Part shown: positions 12,155 through 42,065 of the stretch, piece by piece
Numbering within the stretch: position 1 is the stretch's first letter
How the letters are laid out: the number at the start of each line of letters is the position of its first letter
From: Candidatus Levyibacteriota bacterium
GTDB lineage: Bacteria; Patescibacteriota; Microgenomatia; Levybacterales; UBA12049
DNA length: 64,000 nt
Direction of reading: 5' to 3'
Assembly: GCA_016182185.1 (NCBI GenBank)
Contig: JACOXU010000001.1
Coordinates: 402,915-466,914, forward strand
Program-made: the position numbers and the translations under genes
Notes under the pieces: generated by a model
What the model was told of the DNA's origin: nothing
The model's database searches: none
The model's input: only the letters and a program-made list of their open reading frames with translations

Positions 12155-12907
12155 ATGAGAAATAAAACACACTCAAGTGTTTGGGATAGATTCCCTAAGT
12201 TAAAATCAATATCAAAAGAAAAGTTCCCCAATCATCTTCTTATAATTCCTGACGGAAATGGCAGATGGGCACAAAGATTTAGTAAATTGCCTGTTTTTGG
12301 ACACCGAAAAGGAAGAGAAGTTTTAAAACAAATTCTAGATGATCTCCAAGAGCTACCTATACACTTTATAACAGTTTGGGGATTTTCTACCGGCAACTGG
12401 AAAAGATCAAAAGCTGAAGTCAAAGCCCTCATGAGTATTTTTGAAAAAGCAGTAAATGAAAATCTTCCAAGATTAATAGAAACGGGCACTCGTTTTATAC
12501 ATATTGGCAGAGAGGATAGAATCCCAAAGTCTTTAAAAAATGCCATCCGAAATTCGGAAATTAAGACAAAAACAAACAGAAAACGAGTATTTTGTCTTGC
12601 AATAGACTTTGGAGGAGAAGATCAAGAACTTAGAATGATGGAGAAAATCCGCGATCTCCCAAAAAATATAAAAATAACCCCGCAGGTTGTTGAAAAATTG
12701 AGAGACGCACAGGGTTTAATTCCACAGGCAGATTTAATTATCAGAACGTCAGGTGAACAAAGAACCTCTGATCTTGGCTGGCTTGAGCGAAATTCGGAAT
12801 TCTATTCCATTAAAAAACTTCTACCGATGACTGCAACATCTGACTTTATTGAAGCAATTATTGATTATTCGAAAAGAAATAGGCGATTTGGAGCAAGACC
12901 AAAATAA
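12155..12907 (+). CDS. uppS: Undecaprenyl/isoprenyl diphosphate synthase (cis-prenyltransferase)
   Basis: HLLIIPDGNGRWAQ (like HVAIIMDGNGRWA), FSTGNWKRSKAEV, and an RTSGEQRTSD motif. Confidence 0.85.
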   Translation: MRNKTHSSVWDRFPKLKSISKEKFPNHLLIIPDGNGRWAQRFSKLPVFGHRKGREVLKQILDDLQELPIHFITVWGFSTGNWKRSKAEVKALMSIFEKAVNENLPRLIETGTRFIHIGREDRIPKSLKNAIRNSEIKTKTNRKRVFCLAIDFGGEDQELRMMEKIRDLPKNIKITPQVVEKLRDAQGLIPQADLIIRTSGEQRTSDLGWLERNSEFYSIKKLLPMTATSDFIEAIIDYSKRNRRFGARPK

Positions 12908-12912
12908 AAACA

Positions 12913-13980
12913 ATGGACGATTTACAAATTTTCAAGGAAAAATTTGATCTTTTCTTAAAAGCACGCCTTAAGCAAAAAACTAAGCAACTTGCCACATACT
13001 CAAAAGATCCTTTCGTTTTAGACTATATTGATTACGCAAAAAAGATTACTGTAATAGGCGGAAAAAGAATAAGACCATATATTGCATACTTAATGTATAA
13101 GTCTTTCGGAGGCAAAGAGGAAGAAAAAGTTTTAAAACTCCTCACTTCCCTTGAAATTCTCCATTCATTTCTGCTTATGCACGATGACATTATCGACAAA
13201 GGAACTCTTCGACATGGAATAAAAACCTCTCATATATATATCGCCAACAAATTAACTAAAGCCCAAAGACATGGGGAATACCTGAATCTTGGTAAATCGC
13301 AAGCTATGCTCCTTGGAGATTTTCTATTTTCCTGGTCGCAGGAAATAATCAACCAAAATTCCGATTTTAATGAAAAAATATTAAAGAATTTAAGACGATA
13401 TTTTTATGCAATGGTTGATAAAGTAATCCTCGGGGAAATGATCGATGTTGATCTTACAACACGAAAAAGCGTAACAAATGATCTTATAGATCAGGAGTTC
13501 CGTCTTAAAACAGCAAGTTACAGCTTTATTGGCCCAATGCAAATCGGTGTGGCCTTAGCAGACAAGACAACTAAAAAAATAGAGAAACTTTGTATAGAAT
13601 TGGGGACAAATCTTGGGATTGCTTTTCAGATACAAGATGATTTGCTTGATATCATGTCAACCGACAAAAATATGTCTAAAGCTACATCTTCCGATATTTT
13701 ACAGCATCAACATACTTATTTTACTCAATATATTTTTGAGCATGGAAGCAAAAATCAAATAAATACGTTGAATAGTTTATTCGAACAAAAAAAGAATAAA
13801 TCAGATAAATCTAAAATTAAAAAATTATTTGTTGAATCAGGAGCAATAAAGATGGGAAAACAGATAATTGAAAACTGTATTGATAAAGCAAGGGAGTTAG
13901 TCAAAGAATTTACTATTCAAGAAGACAAAAAAAGAGAATTAATTCTATTAATTGAAACTATTCGAAAAAGAACGTACTAG
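12913..13980 (+). CDS. Trans-polyprenyl diphosphate synthase, short-chain (FPP/GGPP synthase type)
   Basis: First Asp-rich motif LLMHDDIID and second FQIQDDLLD. The bulky Phe four residues upstream of the first motif suggests a short-chain product. Confidence 0.85.
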   Translation: MDDLQIFKEKFDLFLKARLKQKTKQLATYSKDPFVLDYIDYAKKITVIGGKRIRPYIAYLMYKSFGGKEEEKVLKLLTSLEILHSFLLMHDDIIDKGTLRHGIKTSHIYIANKLTKAQRHGEYLNLGKSQAMLLGDFLFSWSQEIINQNSDFNEKILKNLRRYFYAMVDKVILGEMIDVDLTTRKSVTNDLIDQEFRLKTASYSFIGPMQIGVALADKTTKKIEKLCIELGTNLGIAFQIQDDLLDIMSTDKNMSKATSSDILQHQHTYFTQYIFEHGSKNQINTLNSLFEQKKNKSDKSKIKKLFVESGAIKMGKQIIENCIDKARELVKEFTIQEDKKRELILLIETIRKRTY

Positions 13981-14635: not shown

Positions 14636-15304
14636 CTAGAAAGATAGATCTTCAGTCTGTTCGCGGTGGAAGTTATATGCGGATATAGAAAATTCCGGAG
14701 CTAAAACTTGAGACAGAGGAAACTTTGAACCATTAATGATTGCGGGGATTATTCCTTCAATCTCATTTATGTTTATAGATTGAAATACAATATTTCTTAC
14801 CATTCCGGGATGAAGACTTCTTATGTCTTCTATCGTAAGCCACCCATTGCCTTCAACCTCAATTCCATCTAAAGGCTTAACCTCTCCGTTCATTGGTCCG
14901 TCATAGTAAAGAAATGCTAAATCCACCGGTATCTCTCCTTTCCTTATTGAGACAACACCTTCTCTATACGAATTTTGTGTAACATAAAGGTGATTTAGTA
15001 AAATCCTATCATCTCCGCTAAACTCAGCAAGAGCACCTAATAAATTATACAATGGGCTTTCTCCACGCTTTCTAGTTTCTGCGATAAATGATATTTGTCC
15101 GGCTACCTTCTCCGTCATAGGTTTTGTTTCTCTTTCTCTTACTGTCCACAAGAGGATATTATCTTCATCGCCTTGGGGACTTGCGAAAACTACAACTACG
15201 ATCGCCTTACTGCCGGGCTCGTTCTCAGGAGAAGCTATTATTTCCTGTTGGGGCTTGCTTCCATTAACTCCGTGTATTTTAATGATTCGGGTTTCTGCTA
15301 TCAT
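14636..15304 (-). CDS. Hypothetical protein, possibly a degenerate Nudix-fold protein
   Basis: AIVVVVFASPQGDEDNILLWTVRER...KVAGQISFIAETRKRGESPLYNLLGALAEFSG resembles a Nudix box that lacks the RExxEE residues. Confidence 0.3.
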   Translation of the reverse strand: MIAETRIIKIHGVNGSKPQQEIIASPENEPGSKAIVVVVFASPQGDEDNILLWTVRERETKPMTEKVAGQISFIAETRKRGESPLYNLLGALAEFSGDDRILLNHLYVTQNSYREGVVSIRKGEIPVDLAFLYYDGPMNGEVKPLDGIEVEGNGWLTIEDIRSLHPGMVRNIVFQSININEIEGIIPAIINGSKFPLSQVLAPEFSISAYNFHREQTEDLSF

Positions 15305-15305
15305 T

Positions 15306-16085
15306 TTATTTAATAACTGTTCCTTTTACGGATTTTCCTATTATAGCACTGTAGAATGAATTTTTCCTGTTTCCTATCAGAAAAGTTTTTACCCCATTTT
15401 CTGCCAGCGCAAGAGCTGTTTCAGCTTTGTGTATCATCCCGCCTGTAACATCCGGTCTATCGCTTTTTTCTATAAATTTTTTAATTTTCGGCCAGCTGAC
15501 TTTGTCAATAAGCGGAATTGTTCTTTTCTTATCATCATAAATACCATCAGTTTCTCCTATTTCGATTACTTTTTCTATATTATATTTTTTATTTATAAAA
15601 AACTCCGCTATTTTGCTCAGAATGGTTTCGCCGGAAAAAATCGTACTCTTCCATTTAGAATCCCAGATAACATCTCCGAAAAGAACGGGTACTAAGTTTT
15701 GGTTAATCATTTTTTCTATTGATGAAAAAAAACTTTTTTCCAGCATACCGCCTGCTGCAGTAATTATTCCCATAGGTCTTATTGAAATTGCGGGAATTTT
15801 TTCCTTGATTAGAGCGTCTACAACGATTTTATTTATATCAAAGGCGTCCTTTGACACCCTTGCTATTCCCATCCTGTTTTTATAACCCCTTCTTCCTCCA
15901 TAGATAGATGCTGAAGTGTGTCCGAAGGATCCGCTTCCATGAGCAATAATCATTCTAATGTTTTTCACTTTGCTTATATTCCGAGCAATTCGTTTAAGAG
16001 ACTCAGTTCTTACTTTATATGGAATATTTTTATGGGTTATGGCAGATCCCCCAATTTTTATCAAAATGAGCTTTTTAGAGGACAT
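15306..16085 (-). CDS. Isopentenyl phosphate kinase (amino-acid kinase family)
   Basis: LILIKIGGSAITHK and the HGSGSFGH motif. The start was trimmed to the ATG at 16085 (MSSKK), which is preceded by AAGAGG; the ORF-track start at 16244 would overlap rpsI. Confidence 0.7.
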   Translation of the reverse strand: MSSKKLILIKIGGSAITHKNIPYKVRTESLKRIARNISKVKNIRMIIAHGSGSFGHTSASIYGGRRGYKNRMGIARVSKDAFDINKIVVDALIKEKIPAISIRPMGIITAAGGMLEKSFFSSIEKMINQNLVPVLFGDVIWDSKWKSTIFSGETILSKIAEFFINKKYNIEKVIEIGETDGIYDDKKRTIPLIDKVSWPKIKKFIEKSDRPDVTGGMIHKAETALALAENGVKTFLIGNRKNSFYSAIIGKSVKGTVIK

Positions 16086-16086
16086 G

Positions 16087-16572
16087 TTACCTCTTTGGAC
16101 TTTGTTTTTTTCTTCTTGCCTTTCCGCCGGTTCCGATCTTTCTTCTTTCGCGAACCCTTGCGTCAGACTTGAGGAATCCTTTTTTCTTAAGAATTGGTCT
16201 AAATTTATCTTTATCGAGCCTAGAAAGAGCGCGGGAAACTCCAAGAATCAATGCATCAAGTTGCCCTCTTAATCCTCCTCCTTCGAGCCTGACAGTAACT
16301 GCAAACTTATCAAGTGTATCTGTGGCACGAAACGGTTCTTCGTATTGAGTTTTAGAGACTTCTCCTGAGAAGTAGTTTTCAACAGGCATCCCATTTACAA
16401 CAAGGTCTCCTTTTTTGACAGACAAATCTCCCCATGAAAGACTTGCTTTAACAGATGGATAAAGTCTTACTCTTGCAATTGCTTCTTTGCGTCTGCCGAC
16501 TGCATGAATGTAATCTGGTTTTACTTCCTTTTTTTCTTTTATTTCGTTTTCGGATTGTTTTTTTCTTGGCAT
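16087..16572 (-). CDS. rpsI: 30S ribosomal protein S9 (with N-terminal extension)
   Basis: The C-terminal ...GGKARRKKQSPKR is the S9 signature. Confidence 0.9.
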   Translation of the reverse strand: MPRKKQSENEIKEKKEVKPDYIHAVGRRKEAIARVRLYPSVKASLSWGDLSVKKGDLVVNGMPVENYFSGEVSKTQYEEPFRATDTLDKFAVTVRLEGGGLRGQLDALILGVSRALSRLDKDKFRPILKKKGFLKSDARVRERRKIGTGGKARRKKQSPKR

Positions 16573-31234: not shown

Positions 31235-32029
31235 TTAATTTTTCTCCTTCAGAAAATTTTCTTTAATCTTGTCTATTGAATCCTTCATCAAAACCACAGA
31301 ATTTGCTTCTAAAATTTCATATGTATTAATAAGATTTGCACTTACTACGTCTATGCCTTCGAGATTCCTTGCTGCTCTATAAATGTTTTCCAGTCCATTT
31401 TTTGCAGGGCTTGGAACAATTAGAAGCACCTTTCTCTTTTTTTGATCAAATCCTAATTTTCCGAGCGTTGAGTTCATTTGTTTAGTCTTTGGCTCAATTT
31501 TTTCAAGCCCTGCAATTATTTTTACACTTCCGGTATTTTGCTTTAAAGACAAAGCAGAAAAAAGTGCTACTTTCTTCATTTTCTTGGAAAGCTTAAGCGA
31601 ATAATCTCTTGGCTTTGGTCCAAATACTACACCGCCGCCTACAAAAATTGGAGCTTTTCTTGATCCGTGTCTTGCGCGACCAGTTCCTTTTTGCCTCCAT
31701 ACTTTTTTGGTTGATCCCGTAACTTCTCCTCTTGTTTGAGTCGATACAGTTCCTCGTCTTTGATTTGCTAAGTAAACTCTTACGGCTTGGGCCATAAGCT
31801 GGTTATTTATCTTGGCTCCGAAAATTTCCTTAGGTAAAGTTACTCTTGAAACTACCTTTCCTTGCGTGTTATAGACCTGAGCTGAGAGACTCGGGCTTTT
31901 GGCGGAAGGGATTTTTGTAACCGCCTTTTTGACAACTTCTTTCTTCCTTTGAGCAACTTTTGACTTTTCACTTTTTCCGCCAGAGGCGGATTGGCTTTTG
32001 GCCGGAACTTTTGACTTTTTAGCTGGCAC
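31235..32029 (-). CDS. rplD: 50S ribosomal protein L4 with an N-terminal Lys/Ala/Ser-rich extension of about 45 aa
   Basis: ...RQKGTGRARHGSRKAPIFVGGGVVFGPKPR... Confidence 0.85.
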   Translation of the reverse strand: MPAKKSKVPAKSQSASGGKSEKSKVAQRKKEVVKKAVTKIPSAKSPSLSAQVYNTQGKVVSRVTLPKEIFGAKINNQLMAQAVRVYLANQRRGTVSTQTRGEVTGSTKKVWRQKGTGRARHGSRKAPIFVGGGVVFGPKPRDYSLKLSKKMKKVALFSALSLKQNTGSVKIIAGLEKIEPKTKQMNSTLGKLGFDQKKRKVLLIVPSPAKNGLENIYRAARNLEGIDVVSANLINTYEILEANSVVLMKDSIDKIKENFLKEKN

Positions 32030-32993
32030 TTTCTTTGTCCTCCTTGCTTTCTTTTTCCTCCGATGAATCGTTTGTTTTTGTGGCGATAGGCGTTTGTCCA
32101 GTTTCAGGTGAATCTAAATTCGACCCAAGGCCTTCTTGTTTTTCTTTTACCTCGGGTGTCTGAATTTCGCTTAGCGAGCCAGAATTCTCTCCTGTTTTAT
32201 CCTCAGCTTGGCGAGCGTCACCCGAAATCTGCGGTGAACGACTATCGCCATTCTCTTCTGGCTGACTTGCCGAAGCTTCTACTTTTTCTGTTTGAGTATT
32301 TTCTAATTCTTTATTTTCAGTTTTTTCTTCCTCAGTCTTTTTACTTGTTCCATATAATGGTACAAATTTTTTGTTTTCTCCAACTTTGGTAACCATTATC
32401 AAAGTATTTTTCCCTCCAGGAACAAGCCCTTTGATAAGAAGTGTGTCTTCCGAGACTCCGACAACTTCCAGATTTTTGATGGTTACTCTTTCATGCCCCA
32501 TTCTTCCTGCCATTCTTTTGCCTTTGTAAACTCTCCCCGGCGTGGTTGTTTGCCCGATGGAGCCGGGTGCTCTTTCTCTGTCTGACTGACCGTGAGTGCG
32601 AGGCCCTCCCTTGAAATGGTGTCTTTTGACAACTCCTGCGTAACCTTTTCCCTTGGAAACCCCTGTCACATCTACGATGTCGCCTAGTTTGAAGATTTCA
32701 GTGGCGCTTATTACTGCTCCAATTTCTGGAACTTCTCCATTCTCAACTTTGACCTCTCTCAAAAATTTAGGGGCAGATTCTAAGTTTGCCCCTTTAATGT
32801 GTCCCACTAATGCTTTGCTTGCGTTCTTTTTGATGCCGAGTCCAAGTTGCAAAGAAGAATAATCGTGTTTGTCTTTGGACTTAATAGCTACAACCGTATT
32901 CCCTGCAACCCACAAACGGGTTACAGGAATTCTTGTCCCGTCATCCAAAAATTTCTGTGTCTGATCAATTTTTGTACCTAAAATTGCTTGCAT
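32019..32993 (-). CDS. rplC: 50S ribosomal protein L3 with a C-terminal acidic low-complexity tail of about 130 aa
   Basis: The start was trimmed to MQAILGTKIDQTQKF. The ORF-track N-terminus (to 33044) overlies the leader hairpin. The tail is Glu/Ser/Thr/Lys-rich. Confidence 0.9.
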   Translation of the reverse strand: MQAILGTKIDQTQKFLDDGTRIPVTRLWVAGNTVVAIKSKDKHDYSSLQLGLGIKKNASKALVGHIKGANLESAPKFLREVKVENGEVPEIGAVISATEIFKLGDIVDVTGVSKGKGYAGVVKRHHFKGGPRTHGQSDRERAPGSIGQTTTPGRVYKGKRMAGRMGHERVTIKNLEVVGVSEDTLLIKGLVPGGKNTLIMVTKVGENKKFVPLYGTSKKTEEEKTENKELENTQTEKVEASASQPEENGDSRSPQISGDARQAEDKTGENSGSLSEIQTPEVKEKQEGLGSNLDSPETGQTPIATKTNDSSEEKESKEDKESAS

Positions 32994-33028
32994 ATATGTA
33001 TTTATCCTGAGCCTGCCGAATGGACAAC

Positions 33029-33056
33029 AAAAAAAGCGACCCACTTAGAGTCGCCT
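33029..33056 (-). terminator. Attenuator-like or terminator hairpin in the rplC leader
   Basis: The minus strand reads GCGAC-tctaagtgg-GTCGC followed by TTTTTTT. Confidence 0.4.
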
Positions 33057-33177: not shown

Positions 33178-33726
33178 TTAACTTACAGGAAGTTCCCGAA
33201 GAATAAAGGTGTTTAAGGGTGTAGACGGTTTTCTACTGACATTACTTCTGATAAATACGCTTTTCAAAACAACTTCTGCCGGAACTTCAGCTTCACCATC
33301 TACTGCGAGCGCGCAATCTTTGCAAGAAAATGTACCAAGGTCGCGAGTCTTTATTGTAGCTTTAGATCCCTTCGCCATAGCTCTAATATCTTCATCGACA
33401 TTTAATGGAATGCCGCCATTCCCATGCTGAATACAGTGAACTGGCCTATGGGGATAAATCGTGCACTTTTTATCCCTTCCTAAAAATGGGCACTGAGTTA
33501 CTTTAGGATCTTTTGCTCGTCTCTGAGCTCGCTTAACGACCCACTTTTTAATATCTCCTCTTGCTAAAGCATCGCTAATTATTTTTTTGTCACCATAAAC
33601 CATACTAACGTTTGCCTTGCAGCATCCGCCATCTATCCCTTTACAAAAATTATATTCTCTGAAAGAGGAATCAAATCGTTCAACTTTTTCTCGAAATTCC
33701 GGGTACTCAATTTCAGGCACACGCAT
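33178..33726 (-). CDS. YkgJ/UPF0153 family Cys-rich protein (putative zinc- or iron-chelating domain CxxCxGxCC)
   Basis: CKGIDGGCCKANV ... CPFLGRDKKCTIYPHRPVHC matches the PF03692-type pattern. Confidence 0.6.
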   Translation of the reverse strand: MRVPEIEYPEFREKVERFDSSFREYNFCKGIDGGCCKANVSMVYGDKKIISDALARGDIKKWVVKRAQRRAKDPKVTQCPFLGRDKKCTIYPHRPVHCIQHGNGGIPLNVDEDIRAMAKGSKATIKTRDLGTFSCKDCALAVDGEAEVPAEVVLKSVFIRSNVSRKPSTPLNTFILRELPVS

Positions 33727-34106: not shown

Positions 34107-34406
34107 TTAATTACTGACGGGCTCTCTGTGGCCGGCTGAAAATACTTCAGGAGTCTTCTTGCTTCTTTCAAAAATCACTCCCGATTCCAATAGCTGACCC
34201 TCAAGTTCAGTCGGATAATATAGTTTTGCTTCTCCGGGTCTATCCACATGCGTGTCAAAAACTATAAACATCGGTGTTTTAGTTTCACCGATTGTGTATC
34301 CTTCAGTATTAGTCTCCAATACTTCTCTATTGATGCTATCTTTGTTGCTTCTTACAAATCCGATAAAAGCTTGAGATTGTTCTTTGGATAAATGTGCTTC
34401 CGGCAT
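34107..34406 (-). CDS. Small hypothetical protein, paralog A of the tuf-rpsJ array
   Basis: A 99-aa protein starting with MP and carrying a C-terminal GVIFE motif shared with paralogs B, C and the broken copy. Confidence 0.45.
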   Translation of the reverse strand: MPEAHLSKEQSQAFIGFVRSNKDSINREVLETNTEGYTIGETKTPMFIVFDTHVDRPGEAKLYYPTELEGQLLESGVIFERSKKTPEVFSAGHREPVSN

Positions 34407-34412
34407 AATAAT

Positions 34413-34748
34413 TTATTTAAGAATTCCCGGATTATTTAGGGACTGGGAGTCTTCCTCGGTAAACGAACATATAGAATCCATGCTTGGCCACCTTGAAGAT
34501 TCAAAAATCACTCCGGCTGTTTTTAATTCCTCCGCATGTCTTTCGCTAACATAGAAGCTATCAAATCTTTCTCGATCATTAGACCATAAAACAATAGGCT
34601 CCCCGTCAACCTCATAAATCCTGGCTGCATGATTATGGGGTATATTTGAAGAAGTCAAAAAATTTCCCCTACCTTGGTGAAGCTTTCCGTAAATCCAGCC
34701 ATTTAGTTTATCAAATTGTTGTTCTGTTTCGATTTCAATCCTCGGCAT
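34413..34748 (-). CDS. Small hypothetical protein, paralog B of the tuf-rpsJ array
   Basis: A 111-aa protein carrying YEVDGE and AGVIFES motifs. Confidence 0.45.
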   Translation of the reverse strand: MPRIEIETEQQFDKLNGWIYGKLHQGRGNFLTSSNIPHNHAARIYEVDGEPIVLWSNDRERFDSFYVSERHAEELKTAGVIFESSRWPSMDSICSFTEEDSQSLNNPGILK

Positions 34749-34749
34749 A

Positions 34750-35000
34750 TTATTCTCTACGAAATTGTCCCGTCAAGTGAGGATCAAGCGTCATTTTTGC
34801 AAATTTTGATCCAGGAGCTTCGTCTGTTGCACTTTCGCTTTCAAAAATTACCCCTTTTTCTCCTAGTGTCGTTTCTATTTCATCCAATACCTCTTGTTCT
34901 CCAAAAACCCTTTGTCTACCTCCTCAACAAGATGGCTTTTTATTTTCTCAAATTTACCAGTTAATCCGCCATTTTTGTTATCAAATTCAATTGTCGGCAT
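34750..35000 (-). pseudogene. Frameshifted member of the small-paralog family
   Basis: The sequence is MPTIEFDNKNGG...ENKRYWMK* and then continues in a different frame as ...EIETTLGEKGVIFESE...GQFRRE*. Confidence 0.45.
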
Positions 35001-35002
35001 AA

Positions 35003-35290
35003 TTAAACAGAGTCTCCGTTGAGATCGTAGATTACTCCTCTTTTTTCCCTTAATTGATCAGCGGCTCCCTCACTTACGATAGCTTTCTCCCACCTATGAA
35101 TAATTCTCGTGTCCACTTGAACACCTAGCAATTCTCCATCAACCTTATATACTTCCAGAGCATTCCCGTTATCCAAAAAGCCCCTTAAAAGATGCTCTCC
35201 TTGCCCTGACTCAATTTTGTCATCAAGCCATTCTCTGAAAGCAAGTCTTTGCGGTTCGTTTATTAAGCTTAATTCTTTAAATGGCGGCAT
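35003..35290 (-). CDS. Small hypothetical protein, paralog C of the tuf-rpsJ array
   Basis: A 95-aa protein carrying YKVDGE and RGVIYD motifs. Confidence 0.45.
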   Translation of the reverse strand: MPPFKELSLINEPQRLAFREWLDDKIESGQGEHLLRGFLDNGNALEVYKVDGELLGVQVDTRIIHRWEKAIVSEGAADQLREKRGVIYDLNGDSV

Positions 35291-35295
35291 AAAAA

Positions 35296-35631
35296 TTATC
35301 CTATCTCTCCTGTTGATCCATTATGTTTTGTGTTGACAACCGTTAAGGTACCATTAATACCATTAATTTCTAATTTTTGACCTTCTTGGTCAAGAAGGAA
35401 AATGTTTTTTTTATTATCTCTTAGATAGCCCTGGCTTAATATTTTTCCACCCCTTAGTCTATTTAGATATCCCAAATTCTCGCCCGTCACATCAACAACA
35501 GTGCTTAAATCGCTAGAAGAAACATTGGCATCTATTGAACCGGCTACAAATTTTTTTTCATCGCCTGAATGGACTTTAGCGCTTGAGGACCCTTCTCCAA
35601 ATTTGAATATTCCTATTTCTGCTGGTGCCAT
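35296..35631 (-). CDS. Small hypothetical Gly/Ser/Asn-rich protein (first gene of the array operon)
   Basis: A 111-aa protein with no clear similarity to A, B or C. It lies 5 nt upstream of C on the same strand. Confidence 0.4.
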   Translation of the reverse strand: MAPAEIGIFKFGEGSSSAKVHSGDEKKFVAGSIDANVSSSDLSTVVDVTGENLGYLNRLRGGKILSQGYLRDNKKNIFLLDQEGQKLEINGINGTLTVVNTKHNGSTGEIG

Positions 35632-35940: not shown

Positions 35941-37128
35941 TTAGGCAATTACCTTCGTGATTACTCCTGCGCCGACGGTTTTTCCGCCTTCCCGGACTGC
36001 AAATCTGAGTCCTTCTTCCATAGCAACAGGGACGATGAGTTTGACTGTCATTTTGGTGTTGTCACCAGGCATGACCATTTCAACTCCTTTAGGAAGTGCG
36101 ACTTCTGCTGTTACATCGGTTGTTCTTATGTAAAATTGCGGTCTGTAGCCTGTAAAGAACGGTGTGTGGCGTCCGCCTTCTTCTTTGGTCAGGATATATA
36201 CTTCTGCTTCAAAATCTTTGTGGGGCTTAATACTGCCCGGTTTGGCAATGACCTGTCCTCTCTCAACATCGTCTTTTTCAACACCTCGAAGAAGAAGCCC
36301 TACATTGTCTCCTGCCTGTCCTTCATCGAGTTGCTTCTTAAACATCTCAACTCCGGTTACGACTGTAGATTTGGTATCTTTGATACCGATAATTTCAACT
36401 GTCTCATTGACTTTAACGACTCCTCTTTCAATTCTCCCTGTTACGACTGTTCCTCGTCCCTTGATTGAGAAAACATCCTCAACAGGCATTAGGAACGGCT
36501 TTTCCAAATCTCTCTTGGGAGTTGGAATGTAACTGTCAACTGCTTCCATAAGAGCCTGAATTTGTTTTTCTGCTTCCGCGTCTCCCTCAAGAGCCTTAAG
36601 TGCCGATCCTCTTATAATTGGCACATCATTTCCTGGGTACTGGTATTTGGTAAGAAGTTCTCTTACTTCCATTTCAACTAAATCCAAAAGCTCAGCATCC
36701 TGAACCATATCACACTTATTCAAGAAAACTACGATAGAAGGAACCTGTACTTGATGGGCAAGAAGAATGTGTTCTCTGGTTTGAGGCATGGGACCGTCTG
36801 GAGCAGACACTACAAGAATGGCACCGTCCATTTGAGCGGCTCCTGTAATCATGTTCTTTATGTAATCTGCGTGTCCCGGAGCATCGATGTGAGCATAGTG
36901 TCTTTTCTCAGTCTCATATTCGATGTGGGTAATATTAATTGTAACTCCTCGGGCTTTTTCCTCGGGAGCATTATCGATATCTTCATATTTCTTGGCTGTT
37001 GCTTTACCTGCTTTGGCCAAAACAGTAGTAATTGCCGCAGTAAGCGTAGTTTTACCATGGTCAACGTGACCGATTGTACCGATATTTACGTGTGGTTTTG
37101 TTCTTTCAAATTTTTTTGCGTCTGCCAT
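35941..37128 (-). CDS. tuf: Elongation factor Tu
   Basis: [15 protein letters not shown] and the [26 protein letters not shown] motif. Confidence 0.98.
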
Positions 37129-37184
37129 ATTTTTAAAAAAATTACAAGAAAAAAATACACCTTAACAATTTTAAGGCTAGAAAG

Positions 37185-37213
37185 AATATACATTATTTTC
37201 CTGCCTTCGTCAA
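37185..37213 (-). promoter_or_regulatory. Candidate tuf promoter (TTGACG-17-TATATT)
   Basis: Read on the minus strand. tuf is separated from fusA by two inserted genes. Confidence 0.4.
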
Positions 37214-37221
37214 GAGGGAAA

Positions 37222-37791
37222 TTAGAGTGGTAATTTTATTTGCTCAGAAGTTACATAAGCGGTATCAGGAACTATTGACAATACAAACGCAGGTCTTTCC
37301 CATGTTCGAATCTCATAAGAAATTCTACCAGAGACCACAGTATAATCCCATCTCTCATAACCATTTGTACCATCGTGCAGTATTTCTTCTCGTTTGGAAT
37401 CTTTTCCTGAATAAACTCCCATCCTGCCTGAAAGGAGTTTATGAATTGTTGGAAGATCTGTACTTCGAGATTGTCCTGCTTGCGGATAACGATTTATAAA
37501 TTGTGGGGGTCTTAAAATTCTACCCCAAAGAAGAATAAAATCTAGAGACAATCTATCTAACCTATGAATTCCTGAATATAAATGTATAATTTTGGCATCT
37601 GGTCTTATTTCAAATGAAGGATTTAATTCGACATGACTACCTTGGGCACTATAGCCAAGCCGTACAAGCTCCTTATCAGCAATTTCCTGATAATGAGGCA
37701 CAAATTCTTCTAAAATCCGTCTTGATCCTTCCCTTTGTAATTCAGGGAGAAATTGTTCCTGCCTGATTCCGGACTCAACTGTCGAAAGCAC
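37222..37791 (-). CDS. Hypothetical protein, cupin-like paralog E
   Basis: The C-terminal AFVLSIVPDTAYV is shared with the neighbouring ORF (VAVVLVIMPDTADIP). HDGTNGYERWDY is a possible cupin motif 1. Confidence 0.4.
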   Translation of the reverse strand: MLSTVESGIRQEQFLPELQREGSRRILEEFVPHYQEIADKELVRLGYSAQGSHVELNPSFEIRPDAKIIHLYSGIHRLDRLSLDFILLWGRILRPPQFINRYPQAGQSRSTDLPTIHKLLSGRMGVYSGKDSKREEILHDGTNGYERWDYTVVSGRISYEIRTWERPAFVLSIVPDTAYVTSEQIKLPL

Positions 37792-37852
37792 AGGTTAAAA
37801 GGATTCTAAGAAGATTATCTCTCCGAAATTTATCTCCCGTCAATGGGGAAAA

Positions 37853-38446
37853 TTAAGCTGCTTTTTCTTGTCGAGGGATATGAAGTTCTTCGTCAGGAAT
37901 ATCTGCCGTATCAGGCATGATTACCAAAACGACTGCAACACCTTCTGAAATTTCCGCCTGATGGTAAGTTTCCGGTGGAACCATTACATGTGGCGCTGCA
38001 CTACTCAGCGTTACAACCTTCGCACTTTCTTCATTCTCATCATCCATCACAAGATCCATGGATCCTATCAAGCTGATATAGTGCTCGACCACCCTTCTTC
38101 CTTTATACGAATGCTTATGTTCGGATGTCCTGCCGATTGATTCGCCATTCTCTTCGGGTTCCGGTTTTAAAACATAACCATAGATCCTGTAATTGTTTAT
38201 TTTTTGCTCAAGGAAATAGTGGCCGTCGGACTTATGGCCATTTGACTTTATATGTCTTTCTGTCTGTTTCTTGAAATTCAACTGGCTTATATCATCAACG
38301 ATTTTAAGCCATTTAAGAGGCTTGAAAGTAAGCTCCCTATAACCGGGTGCCAATAAATTTAAATCCTCGTGGCTCAGGCTACCATTTGTTTTTCTATTTA
38401 CTGCTTCAGGGTTTATTCCCGTATTTGTTTCTGCTCTTGCTGCCAT
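37853..38446 (-). CDS. Cupin-domain protein, paralog F
   Basis: GRTSEHKHSYKGRRVVEHYISLIG has the spacing G(x)4HxH(x)8E(x)6G. PPETYHQAE fits P-x-x-x-x-H-x-x-x as cupin motif 2. A TATAAT box lies 8 nt before the ATG. Confidence 0.5.
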   Translation of the reverse strand: MAARAETNTGINPEAVNRKTNGSLSHEDLNLLAPGYRELTFKPLKWLKIVDDISQLNFKKQTERHIKSNGHKSDGHYFLEQKINNYRIYGYVLKPEPEENGESIGRTSEHKHSYKGRRVVEHYISLIGSMDLVMDDENEESAKVVTLSSAAPHVMVPPETYHQAEISEGVAVVLVIMPDTADIPDEELHIPRQEKAA

Positions 38447-38474
38447 AAAGTATTATTATATAATTTTTTTACTT

Positions 38475-38524
38475 ATTTGGAAAATAAATTCTATATCAGA
38501 CCTCGCCAATCGGCGAGCAGGCAG
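38475..38524 (-). terminator. Hairpin downstream of fusA (CTCGCC-gatt-GGCGAG followed by a weak U-tract)
   Basis: Read on the minus strand at about 38495-38517. Confidence 0.3.
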
Positions 38525-40639
38525 TTACTGTGCCGAAACTCTTCCTGTAAAGGTAGATTTGGCAAGCATCTGCTCTTGAATATTCCTGGGAACTTCTTCA
38601 TAGTGTGACGGCTCCATATAATAGGATGCTCTTCCCTGCGACATCGATCGCAAAGTCGTGGCATAGCCGGAAAGCTCTGCCAAAGGAACCATGGCAAGTA
38701 TTATTGTAGCACGAGTCCTTTCCTCGGTTCCCAAAATTTGAGCTCTTTTGGAAGATAAATCCCCGATAACATCTCCCATAAATTCAGATGGGGTTGTCAC
38801 TTCAACTTTCATAATTGGCTCCAAAAGTGTAAGCTCTGCTTTTTTGCTAGACGCCTGAAGAGCTTGAGAAGCTGCAATTTTAAATGCCACATCAGATGAA
38901 TCAACATCATGATAGCTTCCGTCATAAACCGTAACTGTCATATCTACCATTGGGTAACCCAGGAGTATCCCATTCTCCATTGTTTCCTTGACTCCTTTTT
39001 CAACTGATGAAACAAATTCTGCCGGAATGGCTCCACCTTTTATGGCATCGACAAATTCAAATCCTTCACCTCGAGGTTTTGGCTCAACGCGCAGGAAACA
39101 ATGTCCATACTGACCACGGCCTCCGCTTTGTCGAATATATTTTCCTTCTGCTTCTGCCATTTTTTTAATAGTCTCCTTATAGGCTACCTGCGGCGCACCA
39201 ACATTGGCAAGCACGCTGAATTCTCTCTTCATTCGGTCAACCATAACCTCGAGTTGCAGTTCTCCGATTCCTGAAATAATCGTCTGGCCTGTCTCATGAT
39301 TTGTTTTAATAACAAATGTCGGATCTTCCTCCGAAAGTCTCTTCAAGGCAAAGCCTAATTTTTCCTGGTCCACCTTGGTCTTGGGTTCAATTGCCAAAGA
39401 AATAACCGGTTCCGGGAAAGAAATCTTTTCCAAAATTATCGGGGCTTTTTGATCACACAATGTATCTCCGGTAACAGTTTCTTTAAGCCCGACGAGTGCT
39501 ACGATTTCACCGGCCACCGCTTCTTTAAGTTCTTCCCTGGTATTGGCGTGCATAAGTAAAATTCGGCCGACTCTTTCTGTTTTATTTTTTGTACTATTAT
39601 GGATATACGAGCCTGATACGACTTTTCCTGAATAGACTCTAAAGTATGTAAGTTTTCCTACGTGAGGATCGATCTGAATTTTGAAGGCAAGTCCTGAAAA
39701 AGGATCCTCTGGAACTAATTTTCTTGCGATAGGCTCATTGGTCTTGGGATCTACACCATGTACTTCTTTAAGATCGACCGGTGAAGGAAGATAATCAATT
39801 ACAGCATCGAGAAGGGGTTGTACTCCCTTATTGCGGAGCGAAGATCCTGCATAAATTGGGACCAATTTATATGCGATTACCGCAGCTCTTAGAGCTTTTT
39901 TTAAGTCCTCCAGCGCTGGTTCTTCGCCTCCCAAATATTTTTCCAAAAGCGCATCATCTGTTTCGGCAATTTTTTCAATAAGTTTATGGCGGTACTTTTC
40001 TACCTCATCTTTCATATCAGCCGGGATTTCATCCGAAACTTCAAATTTGGCACCCAATTCATCTGACCCCCAGACAATTGCCTGACGGGTAAGAAGATCT
40101 ACAGTACCTTTAAATGTTTGCTCTGCTCCGATTGGCAAAACCATTATTGCAGGATTTGCACCTAGCCTGTCTTCAATACTTTTTACAGTTGCCAGAAAAT
40201 CAGCGCCGAGCTTATCCATCTTATTGATAAAGCAGAGCCGTGGCACCTTGTATTTGTCTGCCTGTCTCCAGACAGTTTCGGACTGCGATTGAACTCCTTC
40301 TTCGGCATCTAGTACTGTGATTCCACCGTCAAGAACACGCAAAGATCGCTCTACTTCTGCAGTAAAATCTACATGCCCGGGAGTATCAATAATATTTATT
40401 CTGTGGTCTTTCCAAAAAGCAGTTGTTGCGGCTGATACTATAGTAATGCCTCGTTCTTTCTCCTGCTCCATCCAGTCCATTTGAGTGGTTCCGGCATCAA
40501 TATCCCCAATCTTGTAAGTTTTTCCTGTATAAAACAAAATACGCTCGGTAGTCGTAGTTTTGCCTGCGTCAATATGGGCAATAATTCCGATGTTTCGGAT
40601 TTTGTCTAGTGTATATTCTTTTTTCTTCGTTTCCGCCAT
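38525..40639 (-). CDS. fusA: Elongation factor G
   Basis: [16 protein letters not shown] and the [21 protein letters not shown] motif, over a full length of 704 aa. Confidence 0.98.
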
Positions 40640-40739: not shown

Positions 40740-41465
40740 ATGAAAAGTGAATCAGTCATTATAAAGAGCGATGGACATAATCTTTCAGGAACTATTATAA
40801 AACCCGATGGAAATGAAAAGATCCCTGCAGTTGTCTTCTATCACGGCATGATAAGCCAGAGTAAACCCCGATATATTAAACGTGCAGAAGAATTAGCAAA
40901 AGTTGGAATTTCCTCTTTGTGCTTTGACTTTCGAGGCTGCGGTGAAAGTGAAGGAAAACTCGGAGAATTAACTTTGAAAGATTGGCTTGACGATTCAATT
41001 TTGGCTTTTGATTATCTTATCAATCAAGAATTCGTCGACAAAGATAGGATTGGAATAATGGGCAAAAGTTTTGGCGGAGAAATGGCAGCGCTTGTTGCTG
41101 AAAAAAGAAACGTTAGATCAATTGTTCTACATGCGCCTGCTGTTTATCCGGATACGTGGTTCGATGATAAATTTACCTGGGATGAAGAAATAAGCAGAAA
41201 AAGAAAAGAATACAGAAATTCAGAGAAAGCCCTGGATAATAATGCGATAAGAGCGATAGAAAAATTCAAAGGCTCATTATTAGTGGTAGGAAGCGAACTT
41301 GACGGTACATGTCCCAAAACTATAGTTAAAGGTTATTATGAACAGGCAGGATCAACAGACAAAAAAATCGAATGGATAAAAGGTGCCGATCATCCGCTCA
41401 AAGACGAATTCCATAACCACCAACTCACAAAACTCATGCTTGATTGGTTCTCAAAAACCCTTTGA
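40740..41465 (+). CDS. Alpha/beta hydrolase (dienelactone hydrolase / S9 peptidase-like)
   Basis: Nucleophile elbow GKSFGG, with an acid residue in ELDG and a His in GADHPL. A TATAAT box lies 7 nt before the ATG. Confidence 0.7.
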   Translation: MKSESVIIKSDGHNLSGTIIKPDGNEKIPAVVFYHGMISQSKPRYIKRAEELAKVGISSLCFDFRGCGESEGKLGELTLKDWLDDSILAFDYLINQEFVDKDRIGIMGKSFGGEMAALVAEKRNVRSIVLHAPAVYPDTWFDDKFTWDEEISRKRKEYRNSEKALDNNAIRAIEKFKGSLLVVGSELDGTCPKTIVKGYYEQAGSTDKKIEWIKGADHPLKDEFHNHQLTKLMLDWFSKTL

Positions 41466-42065
41466 CTAAATTACTGCGAGGACGGAGAAGTATTGATTTT
41501 GCCTTCGTTCTTCTTGCAAATGTCTTTGTAAAGTATCTTCCGGTGCAGCCGAAATTGAAACATGTAAAGGTAACGACCCTTCAGGTCCTTTAATAACAAA
41601 AGATGGATCATGGTTATTATAGTCGAGAAAAAATGGACCGGTTTCTCTTATCGCTTTTCCATTCTCTCCAAACATGGTAACTTTTACCACTTTATAACTT
41701 TCGGTGTGATCTGGAAAATATCTAAAATCTAACCCATATTGTTTGGCAAAGTCAGAAACTGTATCAATGGTTCGGTCGATTAATCCTACTCGCATGGCTG
41801 TATTGGCCGGTGCAGAATTTAAAATTCTAAGATCTATATCGTTTAAGGGGTGGAATCGTTTTCTTTCCGGTTTTACAGAGCTGCCAATAGCTATGACTCC
41901 TATTTTCTCTCCTTGAAAAAATTGACCGTTTTCTTGAAAAGCGGCGATTAATCTTTGGACTCTTTCTCTATCTATTCCGCTAAGAGTATCTAAATATTCA
42001 CTTGATGGAATCTCTCGTCCTCTTTTTCCTCTTACAATTTCTCCAGCTCTTTCTATAATTTGCAT
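41466..42065 (-). CDS. Polymerase-beta superfamily nucleotidyltransferase-domain protein
   Basis: IGSSVKPERKRFHPLNDIDL matches hG[GS]-x(9-13)-Dh[DE]h. It lies 12 nt downstream of rpsG on the same strand. Confidence 0.55.
   Translation of the reverse strand: MQIIERAGEIVRGKRGREIPSSEYLDTLSGIDRERVQRLIAAFQENGQFFQGEKIGVIAIGSSVKPERKRFHPLNDIDLRILNSAPANTAMRVGLIDRTIDTVSDFAKQYGLDFRYFPDHTESYKVVKVTMFGENGKAIRETGPFFLDYNNHDPSFVIKGPEGSLPLHVSISAAPEDTLQRHLQEERRQNQYFSVLAVI

Follow-up and report, generated by a model that had tools for sequence, protein, structure and literature searches.

A predicted metal-dependent cupin and its diverged paralog separate fusA from tuf in a Candidatus Levybacteria genome

The canonical str operon has the gene order rpsL-rpsG-fusA-tufA, and in E. 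coli and Bacillus tuf is known to possess an extra promoter of its own. Among small cupins, the cupin-type phosphoglucose isomerases (cPGIs; Pfam PF06560; P. furiosus 1QXJ/1X7N, T. litoralis 1J3P) are proteins of about 190 aa that consist of an N-terminal extension and a single cupin barrel. Hansen et al. in 2005 reportedly defined their signature 1 as TX3PX3GXEX3TXGHXHX6-11EXY. The D-lyxose/mannose isomerases (B. subtilis YdaE, 2Y0O; Thermofilum, 7NZO) also consist of one metal-binding cupin domain and measure about 175-185 aa. In the MTXu-5P methylsulfurylase of the MTA-isoprenoid shunt (Rru_A2000, PDB 3JZV) there is a precedent for the feeding of isoprenoid precursor synthesis by a small cupin; neither the MVA nor the MEP pathway has a known step that needs one. 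In the P. furiosus cPGI (PfPGI), Mn is bound by H88, H90, E97 and H136 (PMC6627849). Cupin PGIs are in use in some CPR (PMC7304191), and the isopentenyl phosphate kinase (IPK) of CPR bacteria has been described as functionally 'enigmatic' (PMC6107057).

The window considered here, a 64-kb stretch of a Candidatus Levybacteria MAG, carries a str operon that is like the canonical one in order and strand but differs from it in that one or two cupin genes separate fusA from tuf. Foreign genes also interrupt the pairs rpsG-fusA, tuf-rpsJ and rpsJ-rplC, and the passengers found in the operon of this lineage include small ORFs, a CxxCxxCC protein and an alpha/beta hydrolase. The central genes are as follows.

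38525 to 40639, minus strand: fusA (EF-G, 704 aa), the upstream neighbour, from the ORF list, with EF-G Pfam domains at the same position in homologous loci.
37853 to 38446, minus strand: ORF197, a cupin with a predicted 3-His-1-Glu metal site (H110, H112, E121, H162), from fold model, alignment and dN/dS.
37222 to 37791, minus strand: ORF189, a divergent paralog of the ORF197 cupin with a GTG start, from hhalign, residue table, homologs and dN/dS.
35941 to 37128, minus strand: tuf (EF-Tu, 395 aa), the downstream neighbour, from the ORF list.

A sequence-only reading had singled out the ORFs of 197 and 189 aa between fusA and tuf. Both are present, and the comparisons show that they are two genuine genes within the rpsL-rpsG-fusA-tuf operon of this MAG. 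The insertion described by the same reading is not a recent one. The tuf product shares 96% amino-acid identity with those of two related loci (L001 and L003). The order fusA-cupin-tuf is found in L001/2, L003-6, L008, L019 and L020/21, relatives that reach down to 40% identity, and the fusA-cupin pair recurs in L017 at 35% identity. The tuf promoter, moreover, exists also where just one cupin occurs. The cupin has stood behind fusA since before the split of lineages that are today only 35-40% identical. Recent horizontal insertion was rejected because there is no GC anomaly and the position is ancient.

Neither protein reaches the cut-off of any Pfam or NCBIfam model. Against the curated profiles, ORF197 on its own gives sub-threshold cupin matches (PnbB 1.6e-3, FdtA 0.016, WbuC 2e-4), and ORF189 gives nothing meaningful. 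ORF197 is recognized as a cupin by its predicted beta-barrel fold: the AF2 model is of moderate confidence (pLDDT 65, pTM 0.69), with pLDDT 74-87 in the barrel region, and Foldseek ranks PfPGI and TlPGI first (E 1e-7) and lyxose isomerases next. There are 527 PDB matches at E<=1e-3, and the best 50 of the 527 are almost all cupins. The ORF189 model is poor (pLDDT 57.5, with the remaining four models below 37) and still matches cupins at E 3e-5. The earlier description of both proteins as cupin-like is in line with these models, the double-stranded beta-helix being predicted as a barrel in ORF197 and echoed by the weaker, low-confidence model of ORF189.

About 30 clusters or representatives of the ORF197 family were found among 1.84 billion (1.84e9) proteins, and an alignment of 32 members (A5) is the basis of the invariance counts. 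The metal motifs previously spotted in ORF197, HxH...E...G and PPxxxH, are borne out by the invariance of H110, H112, E121, G128 and H162 in 32/32 members. A second shell of residues, H65, S73, Y77 and H189, is invariant as well, E6 and Y123 are nearly so, and the family signature is completed by an N-terminal M-x(3-4)-E and a C-terminal (M/L)(P/K)xxAxIPxxxLH; ORF197 carries all of it. Its HxH-to-E spacer is 8 residues long, the classical cupin spacing of 3-4 being shorter. Pfam Cupin_2 is matched by 11/32 members (best E 1.6e-7). Run against PDB sequences, the close-clade profile A1 gave 0 matches, and the broad profile A5 was needed to reach the quercetinase YxaG (1Y3T, E 1.7e-7) and Cupin_2 proteins. 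The last protein-homolog search with A5 added P0041 alone, and profile scans yielded one locus in genome contigs and three in metagenomes. These proteins form a small, previously unannotated cupin family of known kind, with ORF197 as a member, and so far the family has been seen mainly on contigs with CPR-like (Patescibacteria) gene order, only two of which are so named. ORF197 itself has 7 homologs at 50-100% identity with conserved length, and its dN/dS of about 0.11, with pN far below pS, indicates purifying selection.

The C-terminal block that the two ORFs had been said to share is real. It is short in pairwise comparison (BLASTP, 21 aa, E 4e-4) and extends over the full length at the profile level, where hhalign of A5 against A2 aligns ORF189 with the cupin family at a probability of 96.6% (E 4.8e-10, 163 columns), a significant similarity. 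The evidence for paralogy is weak in the pairwise comparison or with close-clade profiles (hhalign 25.7%) and decisive only with the 32-member profile. The ORF189 HMM also matches three family members (P0016, P0014, P0017) at E 2e-10 to 6e-9. All four metal ligands are replaced in ORF189 (H110F, H112N, E121T, H162Y), as are H65, S73, Y77 and H189, so that none of these eight family-invariant residues is left; only E6, G128 and the PDTA block of the family signature are retained. ORF189 is therefore a homolog and not a catalytic member of the family, and the idea of a second enzyme alongside ORF197 has to be given up. Its 3-4 homologs, at 46-64% identity, are conserved in length, and ORF189 has invariant motifs of its own (REEILHD, VSGR, TW.(R/N)PA, PDTA). 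Its dN/dS is 0.21-0.44, or 2-4 times that of ORF197, and pN lies well below pS, which indicates purifying selection. ORF189-type copies are confined to the closest clade and absent from L001, L008, L019 and L020. One locus, L007, has kept its ORF189 homolog and lacks one of ORF197; a 94-aa ORF there was considered as a remnant of the latter and rejected for want of similarity (tblastn E 0.24).

The intergenic regions contain the following candidate signals.

38502 to 38517, minus strand: hairpin after the fusA stop, 6-bp GC stem CTCGCC-GATT-GGCGAG (dG -10.9 kcal/mol, z -1.4).
38455 to 38483, minus strand: promoter-like site of ORF197, TTTCCA-17-TATAAT (10/12 consensus match).
37814 to 37843, minus strand: promoter-like site of ORF189, TTGACG-18-GATAAT, preceded by ATTTTCCCCA (conserved in L003, L006 and L007).
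37185 to 37213, minus strand: tuf promoter, TTGACG-17-TATATT, preceded by ATTTCCCTC (10/12 match, 17-nt spacer).
37146 to 37177, minus strand: hairpin in the tuf 5' leader (GCCTTAA / TTAAGGT), followed by a U-run (conserved).

A predicted sigma-70-like promoter precedes each cupin gene and tuf, and those of ORF189 and tuf are conserved in sequence where present. The TATAAT element noticed earlier in front of ORF197 lies at 38455-38460 and ends 8 nt upstream of the ATG, a spacing identical in L001 and L006; the mRNA is therefore predicted to be leaderless or nearly so. The tuf promoter, also proposed before, is found within a 100-nt block that takes in the leader and shows 80% conservation in six loci; on this ground tuf is credited with a promoter of its own, a phylogenetically conserved candidate of sigma-70-like type. 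Its TTGAC and TGTAT(T)AT are invariant in the six loci. The leader hairpin has an invariant stem and a loop that varies, with a dG of only -5.6 kcal/mol and no Rfam match; the Rfam search over 32.5-43.5 kb gave no credible match. The motif ATTT(N)CCCNNTTGAC occurs exactly 2 times in 64 kb (0.04 expected), immediately 3' of both stop codons. Its value as proof of duplication is weakened because the motif also precedes an unrelated gene in L008, and it may simply be the promoter consensus of the lineage.

The conclusion that tuf is transcriptionally uncoupled from fusA is not supported. The hairpin after fusA exists, with its 6-bp stem, and is unexceptional, since 17/200 shuffles fold equally well (z -1.4). 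It has no T-run within 2 nt, the terminator scan made no call on it, and it is absent in L001, L006 and L008 and replaced by a different hairpin in L003. It was rejected as an intrinsic terminator on these grounds: no T-run, weak folding and no conservation. The scan of the minus strand found no terminator-like sites between fusA and tuf, and the internal promoters probably add to read-through from fusA instead of replacing it.

A functional lead comes from distant members of the family. In six distant loci (L009/10, L011, L014, L015, L016, L022) the cupin lies directly upstream of an IPK gene, with gaps of -35 to +81 nt, in a context a few kb downstream of rpoA-rplQ-rplM-rpsI. With 177.9 bits, the IPK of L009 exceeds the cut-off of NCBIfam IPPK_Arch, which is 120. 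The corresponding genes of the window are these.

15306 to 16085, minus strand: IPK homolog directly after rpsI (48-52% identical by tblastn to IPK from L009 and L016; Pfam AA_kinase match).
14636 to 15304, minus strand: p222, a 222-aa protein following IPK (also after IPK in L009, L014 and L016).

A protein of the p222 family is fused to IspH in L022; the p22x family has no PDB match, and NUDIX matches appear only at E 0.14. In the window the cupins and IPK co-occur on the same strand and are not adjacent, IPK lying about 21.8 kb downstream, and cupin-IPK adjacency was not found in the window's own clade. The neighbours of two other members are unrelated genes: in L012 GH18, in L024 DUF8128 and UDP-glucose dehydrogenase. 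By tblastn the window holds no homologs of idi, sigma, ispG or ispH, and among 20 further ORFs searched with Pfam the only other isoprenoid genes were UppS and a polyprenyl synthase. A literature search found no paper linking IPK with a cupin. The IPK link of the distant members lay beyond the sequence on which the earlier functional view was formed; of the isomerase or dioxygenase-type cupin that it proposed, the isomerase type is favoured by the best structural analogy and the fold matches.

With moderate confidence, we favour a reading in which ORF197 would be an isomerase or lyase that depends on a divalent metal and has as its substrate a small metabolite, probably a phosphorylated one. 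Isoprenoid-precursor (isopentenyl phosphate) metabolism would be its most likely pathway, because six distant cupins adjoin IPK and the IPK-p222 cassette is kept here. ORF189 would then be a non-catalytic, pseudo-enzyme partner of structural or regulatory kind, for instance the subunit of a heterodimer, a proposal made because cupins such as PfPGI are dimers. The place in the str operon may be a frozen passenger site that gives high, growth-coupled expression and implies no role in translation, with internal promoters that add to the read-through from fusA. A bolder version, which we regard as unlikely, makes the family an unrecognized isoprenoid-precursor enzyme that would, for example, make, isomerize or recycle isopentenyl or dimethylallyl phosphate together with IPK and p22x; the Levybacteria-type gene would have been relocated into the str operon, to be co-transcribed with EF-G and EF-Tu, and the dead paralog would serve as regulatory subunit.

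ORF197 could instead be a generic sugar or sugar-phosphate isomerase unrelated to isoprenoid metabolism, functionally a remote analogue of cPGI or of the D-lyxose/mannose isomerases; its two settings, fusA-tuf and IPK, would then be accidents of compact CPR genomes. This somewhat unlikely alternative draws on the top fold matches to PfPGI, TlPGI and the D-lyxose isomerases, on the resemblance of T-x-x-HxH-x8-ExY....G and PPxxxH to the cPGI signatures, on Pfam GPI (PF06560) matches in 2/32 members (best E 2.1e-4) and weak MannoseP_isomer matches in 3/32, on the GH18 glycosidase that follows P0020 and the UDP-glucose dehydrogenase near P0033, and on the cupin PGIs of some CPR (PMC7304191). ORF197 itself, however, does not match PF06560 even at E 1, the hhalign probability to PfPGI is 40% and concerns the 68-column core alone, the family does not conserve PP or N of signature 2, and the sole recurrent functional neighbour, in six loci, is IPK. 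An action of the cupin on the translation machinery, such as the modification of EF-Tu, EF-G or a ribosomal protein, would account for its retention between fusA and tuf but seems very improbable. In its favour, relatives down to 35% identity keep the gene behind fusA, the IPK-type context likewise follows ribosomal protein genes within a few kb, and ribosomal proteins and EF-Tu are known targets of cupin/JmjC-fold oxygenases. Yet the site is of the 3-His-1-Glu type and not the HxD/E...H facial triad of 2-oxoglutarate enzymes, JmjC_2 is matched by one member only (E 0.08), and an O2-dependent oxygenase is unlikely because CPR organisms are largely anaerobic fermenters. The operon also holds several other unrelated passengers in this lineage, and location alone is therefore weak evidence.

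As for ORF189, it is quite improbable that it is a decaying, functionless duplicate, a pseudogene in progress next to an ORF197 that alone matters. The loss of every catalytic residue, the raised dN/dS, the absence from L001, L008, L019 and L020 and the poor structure model would all suit decay. Against it stand a reading frame that four lineages, differing by 36-54% in protein sequence, have kept intact and at a conserved length, the invariant motifs of its own, a pN well below pS, a conserved promoter of its own and the retention of ORF189 in L007, where the ORF197 homolog is gone. The pseudo-enzyme partner remains the preferred reading, and ORF197 and ORF189 would make a natural pair of predicted enzyme and pseudo-enzyme.

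What is new is a small unannotated cupin family that has a clear signature of its active site and seems confined to CPR. The locus also suggests that str, among the most conserved bacterial operons, can hold lineage-specific passengers over long evolution, each with its own promoter. On the question of why many CPR bacteria have an archaeal-type IPK, the cupin gives a testable lead; given the six cupin-IPK loci and the co-occurrence here, the cupin and p22x are concrete candidates for assay. Should the IPK link be accidental, ORF197 would be one more hypothetical cupin, ordinary except for where its gene lies.

Among known cupins, cPGI is the best Foldseek match of the ORF197 model (E 1e-7) and resembles it in length, N-terminal extension and single barrel. 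H88, H90, E97 and H136 of PfPGI align with H110, H112, E121 and H162 of ORF197, the local motifs T-x-x-HxH...ExY....G and PPxxxH are cPGI-like, and both proteins have a C-terminal His beyond the last ligand (H158 in PfPGI, H189 in ORF197). The HxH-to-E spacer, in contrast, has 8 residues in ORF197 and 6 in cPGI. Only the second half of signature 1 is found, as T107-S-E-H110-K-H112-x8-E121-H-Y123: the Gly before HxH is replaced, and the upstream TX3PX3GXE half is absent or differently spaced. In signature 2 (PPX3HX3N), ORF197 has P157-P158-x3-H162 but Ile, not Asn, at +4, and the PP varies across the cupin family. For the invariant residues H65, S73 and Y77, cPGI offers no demonstrated counterpart, and the genome context is fusA/tuf or IPK for the cupin family versus glycolysis for cPGI. 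Membership of ORF197 in cPGI was rejected (PF06560 silent at E<=1; hhalign to PfPGI 40% over a 68-column core).

The D-lyxose/mannose isomerases reach the highest TM scores with the ORF197 model (0.49-0.55; Foldseek E about 1e-6), and 2Y0O is weakly matched by the family profile (E 0.04); their sequence similarity to ORF197 is below significance, and sugar-utilization genes are absent near ORF197. At the sequence level the closest relatives of the family profile are YxaG and Cupin_2 proteins, with which HxH...E...H aligns. YxaG is, however, a bicupin quercetin 2,3-dioxygenase, the match spans just about 58 core residues, and both the first 100 residues and the C-terminal IP...LH motif are peculiar to the ORF197 family. 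The ORF189 model has the methylsulfurylase structure 3JZV among its fold matches; that enzyme connects with DXP and the MEP pathway and not with IPK, and no specific sequence relationship to it was found. On the side of the operon, the candidate tuf promoter described here has its likeness in the secondary tuf promoters of the canonical str operon.

All genes from rpoB (about 50.1 kb) to 14.6 kb in this Candidatus Levybacteria MAG (CPR/Patescibacteria) lie on the minus strand, except for one alpha/beta hydrolase gene. ORF197 (HYT08_02435) and ORF189 (HYT08_02430), both labelled ‘hypothetical protein’ by NCBI, belong to this array:

Array start, minus strand except the hydrolase: rpoB, rpoC, rpsL, rpsG, ORF199 and the alpha/beta hydrolase (plus strand)
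38525-40639, minus: fusA
37853-38446, minus: ORF197, directly after fusA in gene order
37222-37791, minus: ORF189, between ORF197 and tuf
35941-37128, minus: tuf, after ORF189
After tuf, minus: four small ORFs, rpsJ, CxxCxxCC protein, rplC, remaining ribosomal protein genes
Array end, minus: rpoA, rplQ, rplM, rpsI, isopentenyl phosphate kinase (IPK) homolog, 222-aa protein (p222)

The rpsG-fusA order is interrupted by the hydrolase (S9/S33-like; 40740-41465, plus strand), found at the same position in L001, L002 and L017, and by a family-less 199-aa ORF (41466-42065, minus). The four small ORFs between tuf and rpsJ (111, 95, 111 and 99 aa; 34107-35631, minus) have no Pfam family (0/4); the 95-aa and second 111-aa ORFs are paralogs (blastp E 2.5e-7), and a homolog of the first 111-aa ORF sits at the corresponding place behind tuf in L020 (E 1.6e-11). 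A CxxCxxCC protein (PF03692, putative zinc- or iron-chelating domain; 33178-33726, minus) is inserted between rpsJ and rplC. The product of rplC (32019-33044, minus) is 341 aa long and its C-terminus is an extended acidic tail rich in Ser, Glu and Lys; L001 (308 aa) and L020 (330 aa) likewise have long L3 genes.

The cupin genes had been read from sequence alone as an insertion between fusA and tuf; comparison with relatives shows that it is not a recent one. A cupin gene lies between the two in the window, L001/2, L003-6, L008, L019 (40% identity) and L020/21 (40%, 24 contigs). In L017 (35%) the cupin follows fusA and the contig stops just past it. The arrangement is thus ancient, with no fresh insertion, and the cupin region contains neither a composition anomaly nor a known RNA family. 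An IS element, made up of an rve-family transposase and a small ORF, separates the ORF189 homolog from tuf in L003 (1384-2656), L004 and L005.

All features listed in the sequence-only reading are present at the locus, though the transcriptional uncoupling of tuf from fusA that it proposed is not demonstrated. The hairpin after fusA has a 6-bp stem (38502-38517; dG -10.9 kcal/mol, z -1.4), but it lacks a T-run, is not called in a terminator scan and has no equivalent in L001, L006 or L008; L003 carries a different, stronger hairpin. Between fusA and tuf the minus strand has no terminator-like site. Upstream of ORF197, the TATAAT box stops 8 nt short of the ATG, with equal spacing in L001 and L006. 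Conservation makes it very probable that tuf has a promoter of its own, as had been suggested: TTGACG-17-TATATT belongs to a stretch of 100 nt with 80% identity over six loci, whose cupin proteins are only 50-70% identical. Promoter and leader are retained with a single cupin (L001, L008) and downstream of the IS insertion (L003). An own promoter for tuf is not unusual. The ORF189 and tuf promoters have in common an upstream element, ATTT(N)CCCNNTTGAC, which occurs only twice in 64 kb (expected 0.04), once right behind the stop codon of each cupin ORF. This fits duplication of a gene together with its promoter; because the motif also precedes an unrelated gene in L008, it may instead be the lineage's promoter consensus. 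Within the tuf 5' leader (37129-37183, minus), GCCTTAA / TTAAGGT form an invariant stem around a loop of 5-6 nt that varies, and GTATTTTTTTCTTG comes after this hairpin. The stem has counterparts at this position in L001, L003, L006, L007 and L008; it is weak (dG -5.6), without compensatory changes or an Rfam match. Hairpin and U-run could form an attenuator or stability element.

ORF189 is a genuine paralog of ORF197 but, judged by its residues, catalytically dead. The shared C-terminal block is real, if short in pairwise comparison (21 aa, E 4e-4), and hhalign matches ORF189 to the broad family profile over 163 columns (96.6% probability, E 4.8e-10), running from M-x4-E at the N-terminus to the PDTA block at the C-terminus. 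Its low-confidence structure model also matches cupins. The proposed pair of cupin-like paralogs holds up, but ORF189 appears to be a pseudo-enzyme with its ligands replaced. In all four ORF189-type sequences H65 is replaced by R/N, S73 by A/T, Y77 by H/N, H110 by F/I, H112 by N/I/T/S, E121 by T/S and H189 by K/N, and in three of four H162 is Y; only E6 and G128 survive. ORF189 is a maintained gene, since it has an intact frame, conserved length, invariant motifs of its own, a promoter kept in L003, L006 and L007, and pN well below pS (dN/dS 0.21-0.44; ORF197 has about 0.11 and tuf 0.02, and dS is close to saturation). Apart from L007, it is confined to loci whose ORF197 ortholog shows 66% identity or more (window, L003-5, L006), and it is absent from L001/2, L008, L019 and L020. 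Its HMM scores the less derived subfamily of P0016, P0014 and P0017 better (E 2e-10 to 6e-9) than it scores ORF197 (E 1e-3). That subfamily likewise lies behind fusA. We conclude that duplication occurred within the fusA-linked lineage and active-site loss followed. ORF189 may serve as a non-catalytic partner or ligand binder. On the 1.8-kb contig L007 the dead paralog is retained without a catalytic neighbour; the place of ORF197, after fusA and before the ORF189 homolog, is taken by a 94-aa ORF (794-1078) without cupin similarity.

A second context of the family is found directly upstream of IPK, in six loci representing several subfamilies (L009/10, L011, L014, L015, L016, L022/23). The cupin-to-IPK distance is -35 to +81 nt, the downstream gene encodes about 250-260 aa in all six, and against the NCBIfam model IPPK_Arch (cut-off 120) the L009 gene reaches 177.9 bits. 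A 214-227-aa protein usually comes next, fused in L022 to IspH/LytB (533 aa); its NUDIX matches are only faint (E 0.14), and no PDB sequence matches it. This neighbourhood lies downstream of rpoA-rplQ-rplM-rpsI, and nearby are ispG, uppS, ispH, polyprenyl synthase, an Idi-like NUDIX protein and an ECF sigma factor. The corresponding features are:

Window 15306-16085 (alternatively 15306-16244), minus: archaeal-type IPK homolog, directly after rpsI, where the ribosomal protein genes end
Window 14636-15304, minus: p222, the 214-227-aa protein, directly after rpsI-IPK
Window 12913-13980: polyprenyl synthase, near IPK/p222
Window 12155-12907: UppS, near IPK/p222
L009 7388-8032, L014 1461-2144, L016 6289-6972, L022 6364-7965: 214-227-aa protein after IPK

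With IPK, p222, UppS and polyprenyl synthase after rpsI, the same genes therefore co-occur with the cupin in the window, where it lies 21 kb upstream of IPK in the same co-directional array; tblastn found no idi, ispG or ispH homologs in the window. Two other family members lie beside unrelated genes, GH18 (L012) or DUF8128 and UDP-glucose dehydrogenase (L024). Most Microgenomates have MVA enzymes, and CPR IPK homologs have been termed uncharacterised and ‘enigmatic’ (Hoshino and Gaucher, PMC6107057). In the literature searched, no paper connects IPK with a cupin. The best-supported guess at the cupin's pathway, a doubtful one in itself, is isoprenoid-precursor metabolism around IPK.

Homologs of ORF197 are few: only 7 by word-indexed search and 30, 10 of them with E below 1e-10, when 1.84 billion representatives were searched exhaustively with an HMM. 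ORF197 matches no Pfam or NCBIfam model at threshold; Cupin_2 is matched by 11 of the 32 members of the family alignment. Across subfamilies, a ...KAA or ...RAA C-terminus is common (ORF197, 37853-37870; P0002, P0003, P0004, P0007, P0011, P0027, P0031, P0032), its conserved Ala-Ala resembling an ssrA-type degradation tag. The AlphaFold model (pLDDT 64.8, pTM 0.69, barrel region 74-87) predicts N-terminal helices followed by a beta-barrel, and almost all of the best 50 of 527 Foldseek matches in the PDB (E<=1e-3) are cupins, in agreement with the fold first proposed. The metal motif likewise holds up: H110, H112, E121, G128 and H162 are invariant in the 32-member alignment, as are H65, S73, Y77 and H189, with E6 and Y123 near-invariant. 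Sequence-level matches of the family profile to cupins in the PDB (YxaG, E 1.7e-7) also bring the HxH/E/H ligands into alignment.

The top Foldseek matches are cupin-type phosphoglucose isomerases (cPGIs) of Pyrococcus and Thermococcus (E 1e-7), plus D-lyxose isomerases. In alignment with the P. furiosus cPGI (sequence checked against 1QXJ), H110, H112, E121 and H162 fall on its Mn ligands H88, H90, E97 and H136 (PMC6627849), over a 68-residue core only and at 40% probability. ORF197 as a cPGI is ruled out, because PF06560 is unmatched and only half of the cPGI signatures are matched. It would function like a metal-dependent cupin, most plausibly as an isomerase or lyase whose substrate would most likely be a small phosphorylated metabolite. 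From sequence and model, ORF197 is a putative enzyme of an undescribed family within the well-known cupin superfamily.
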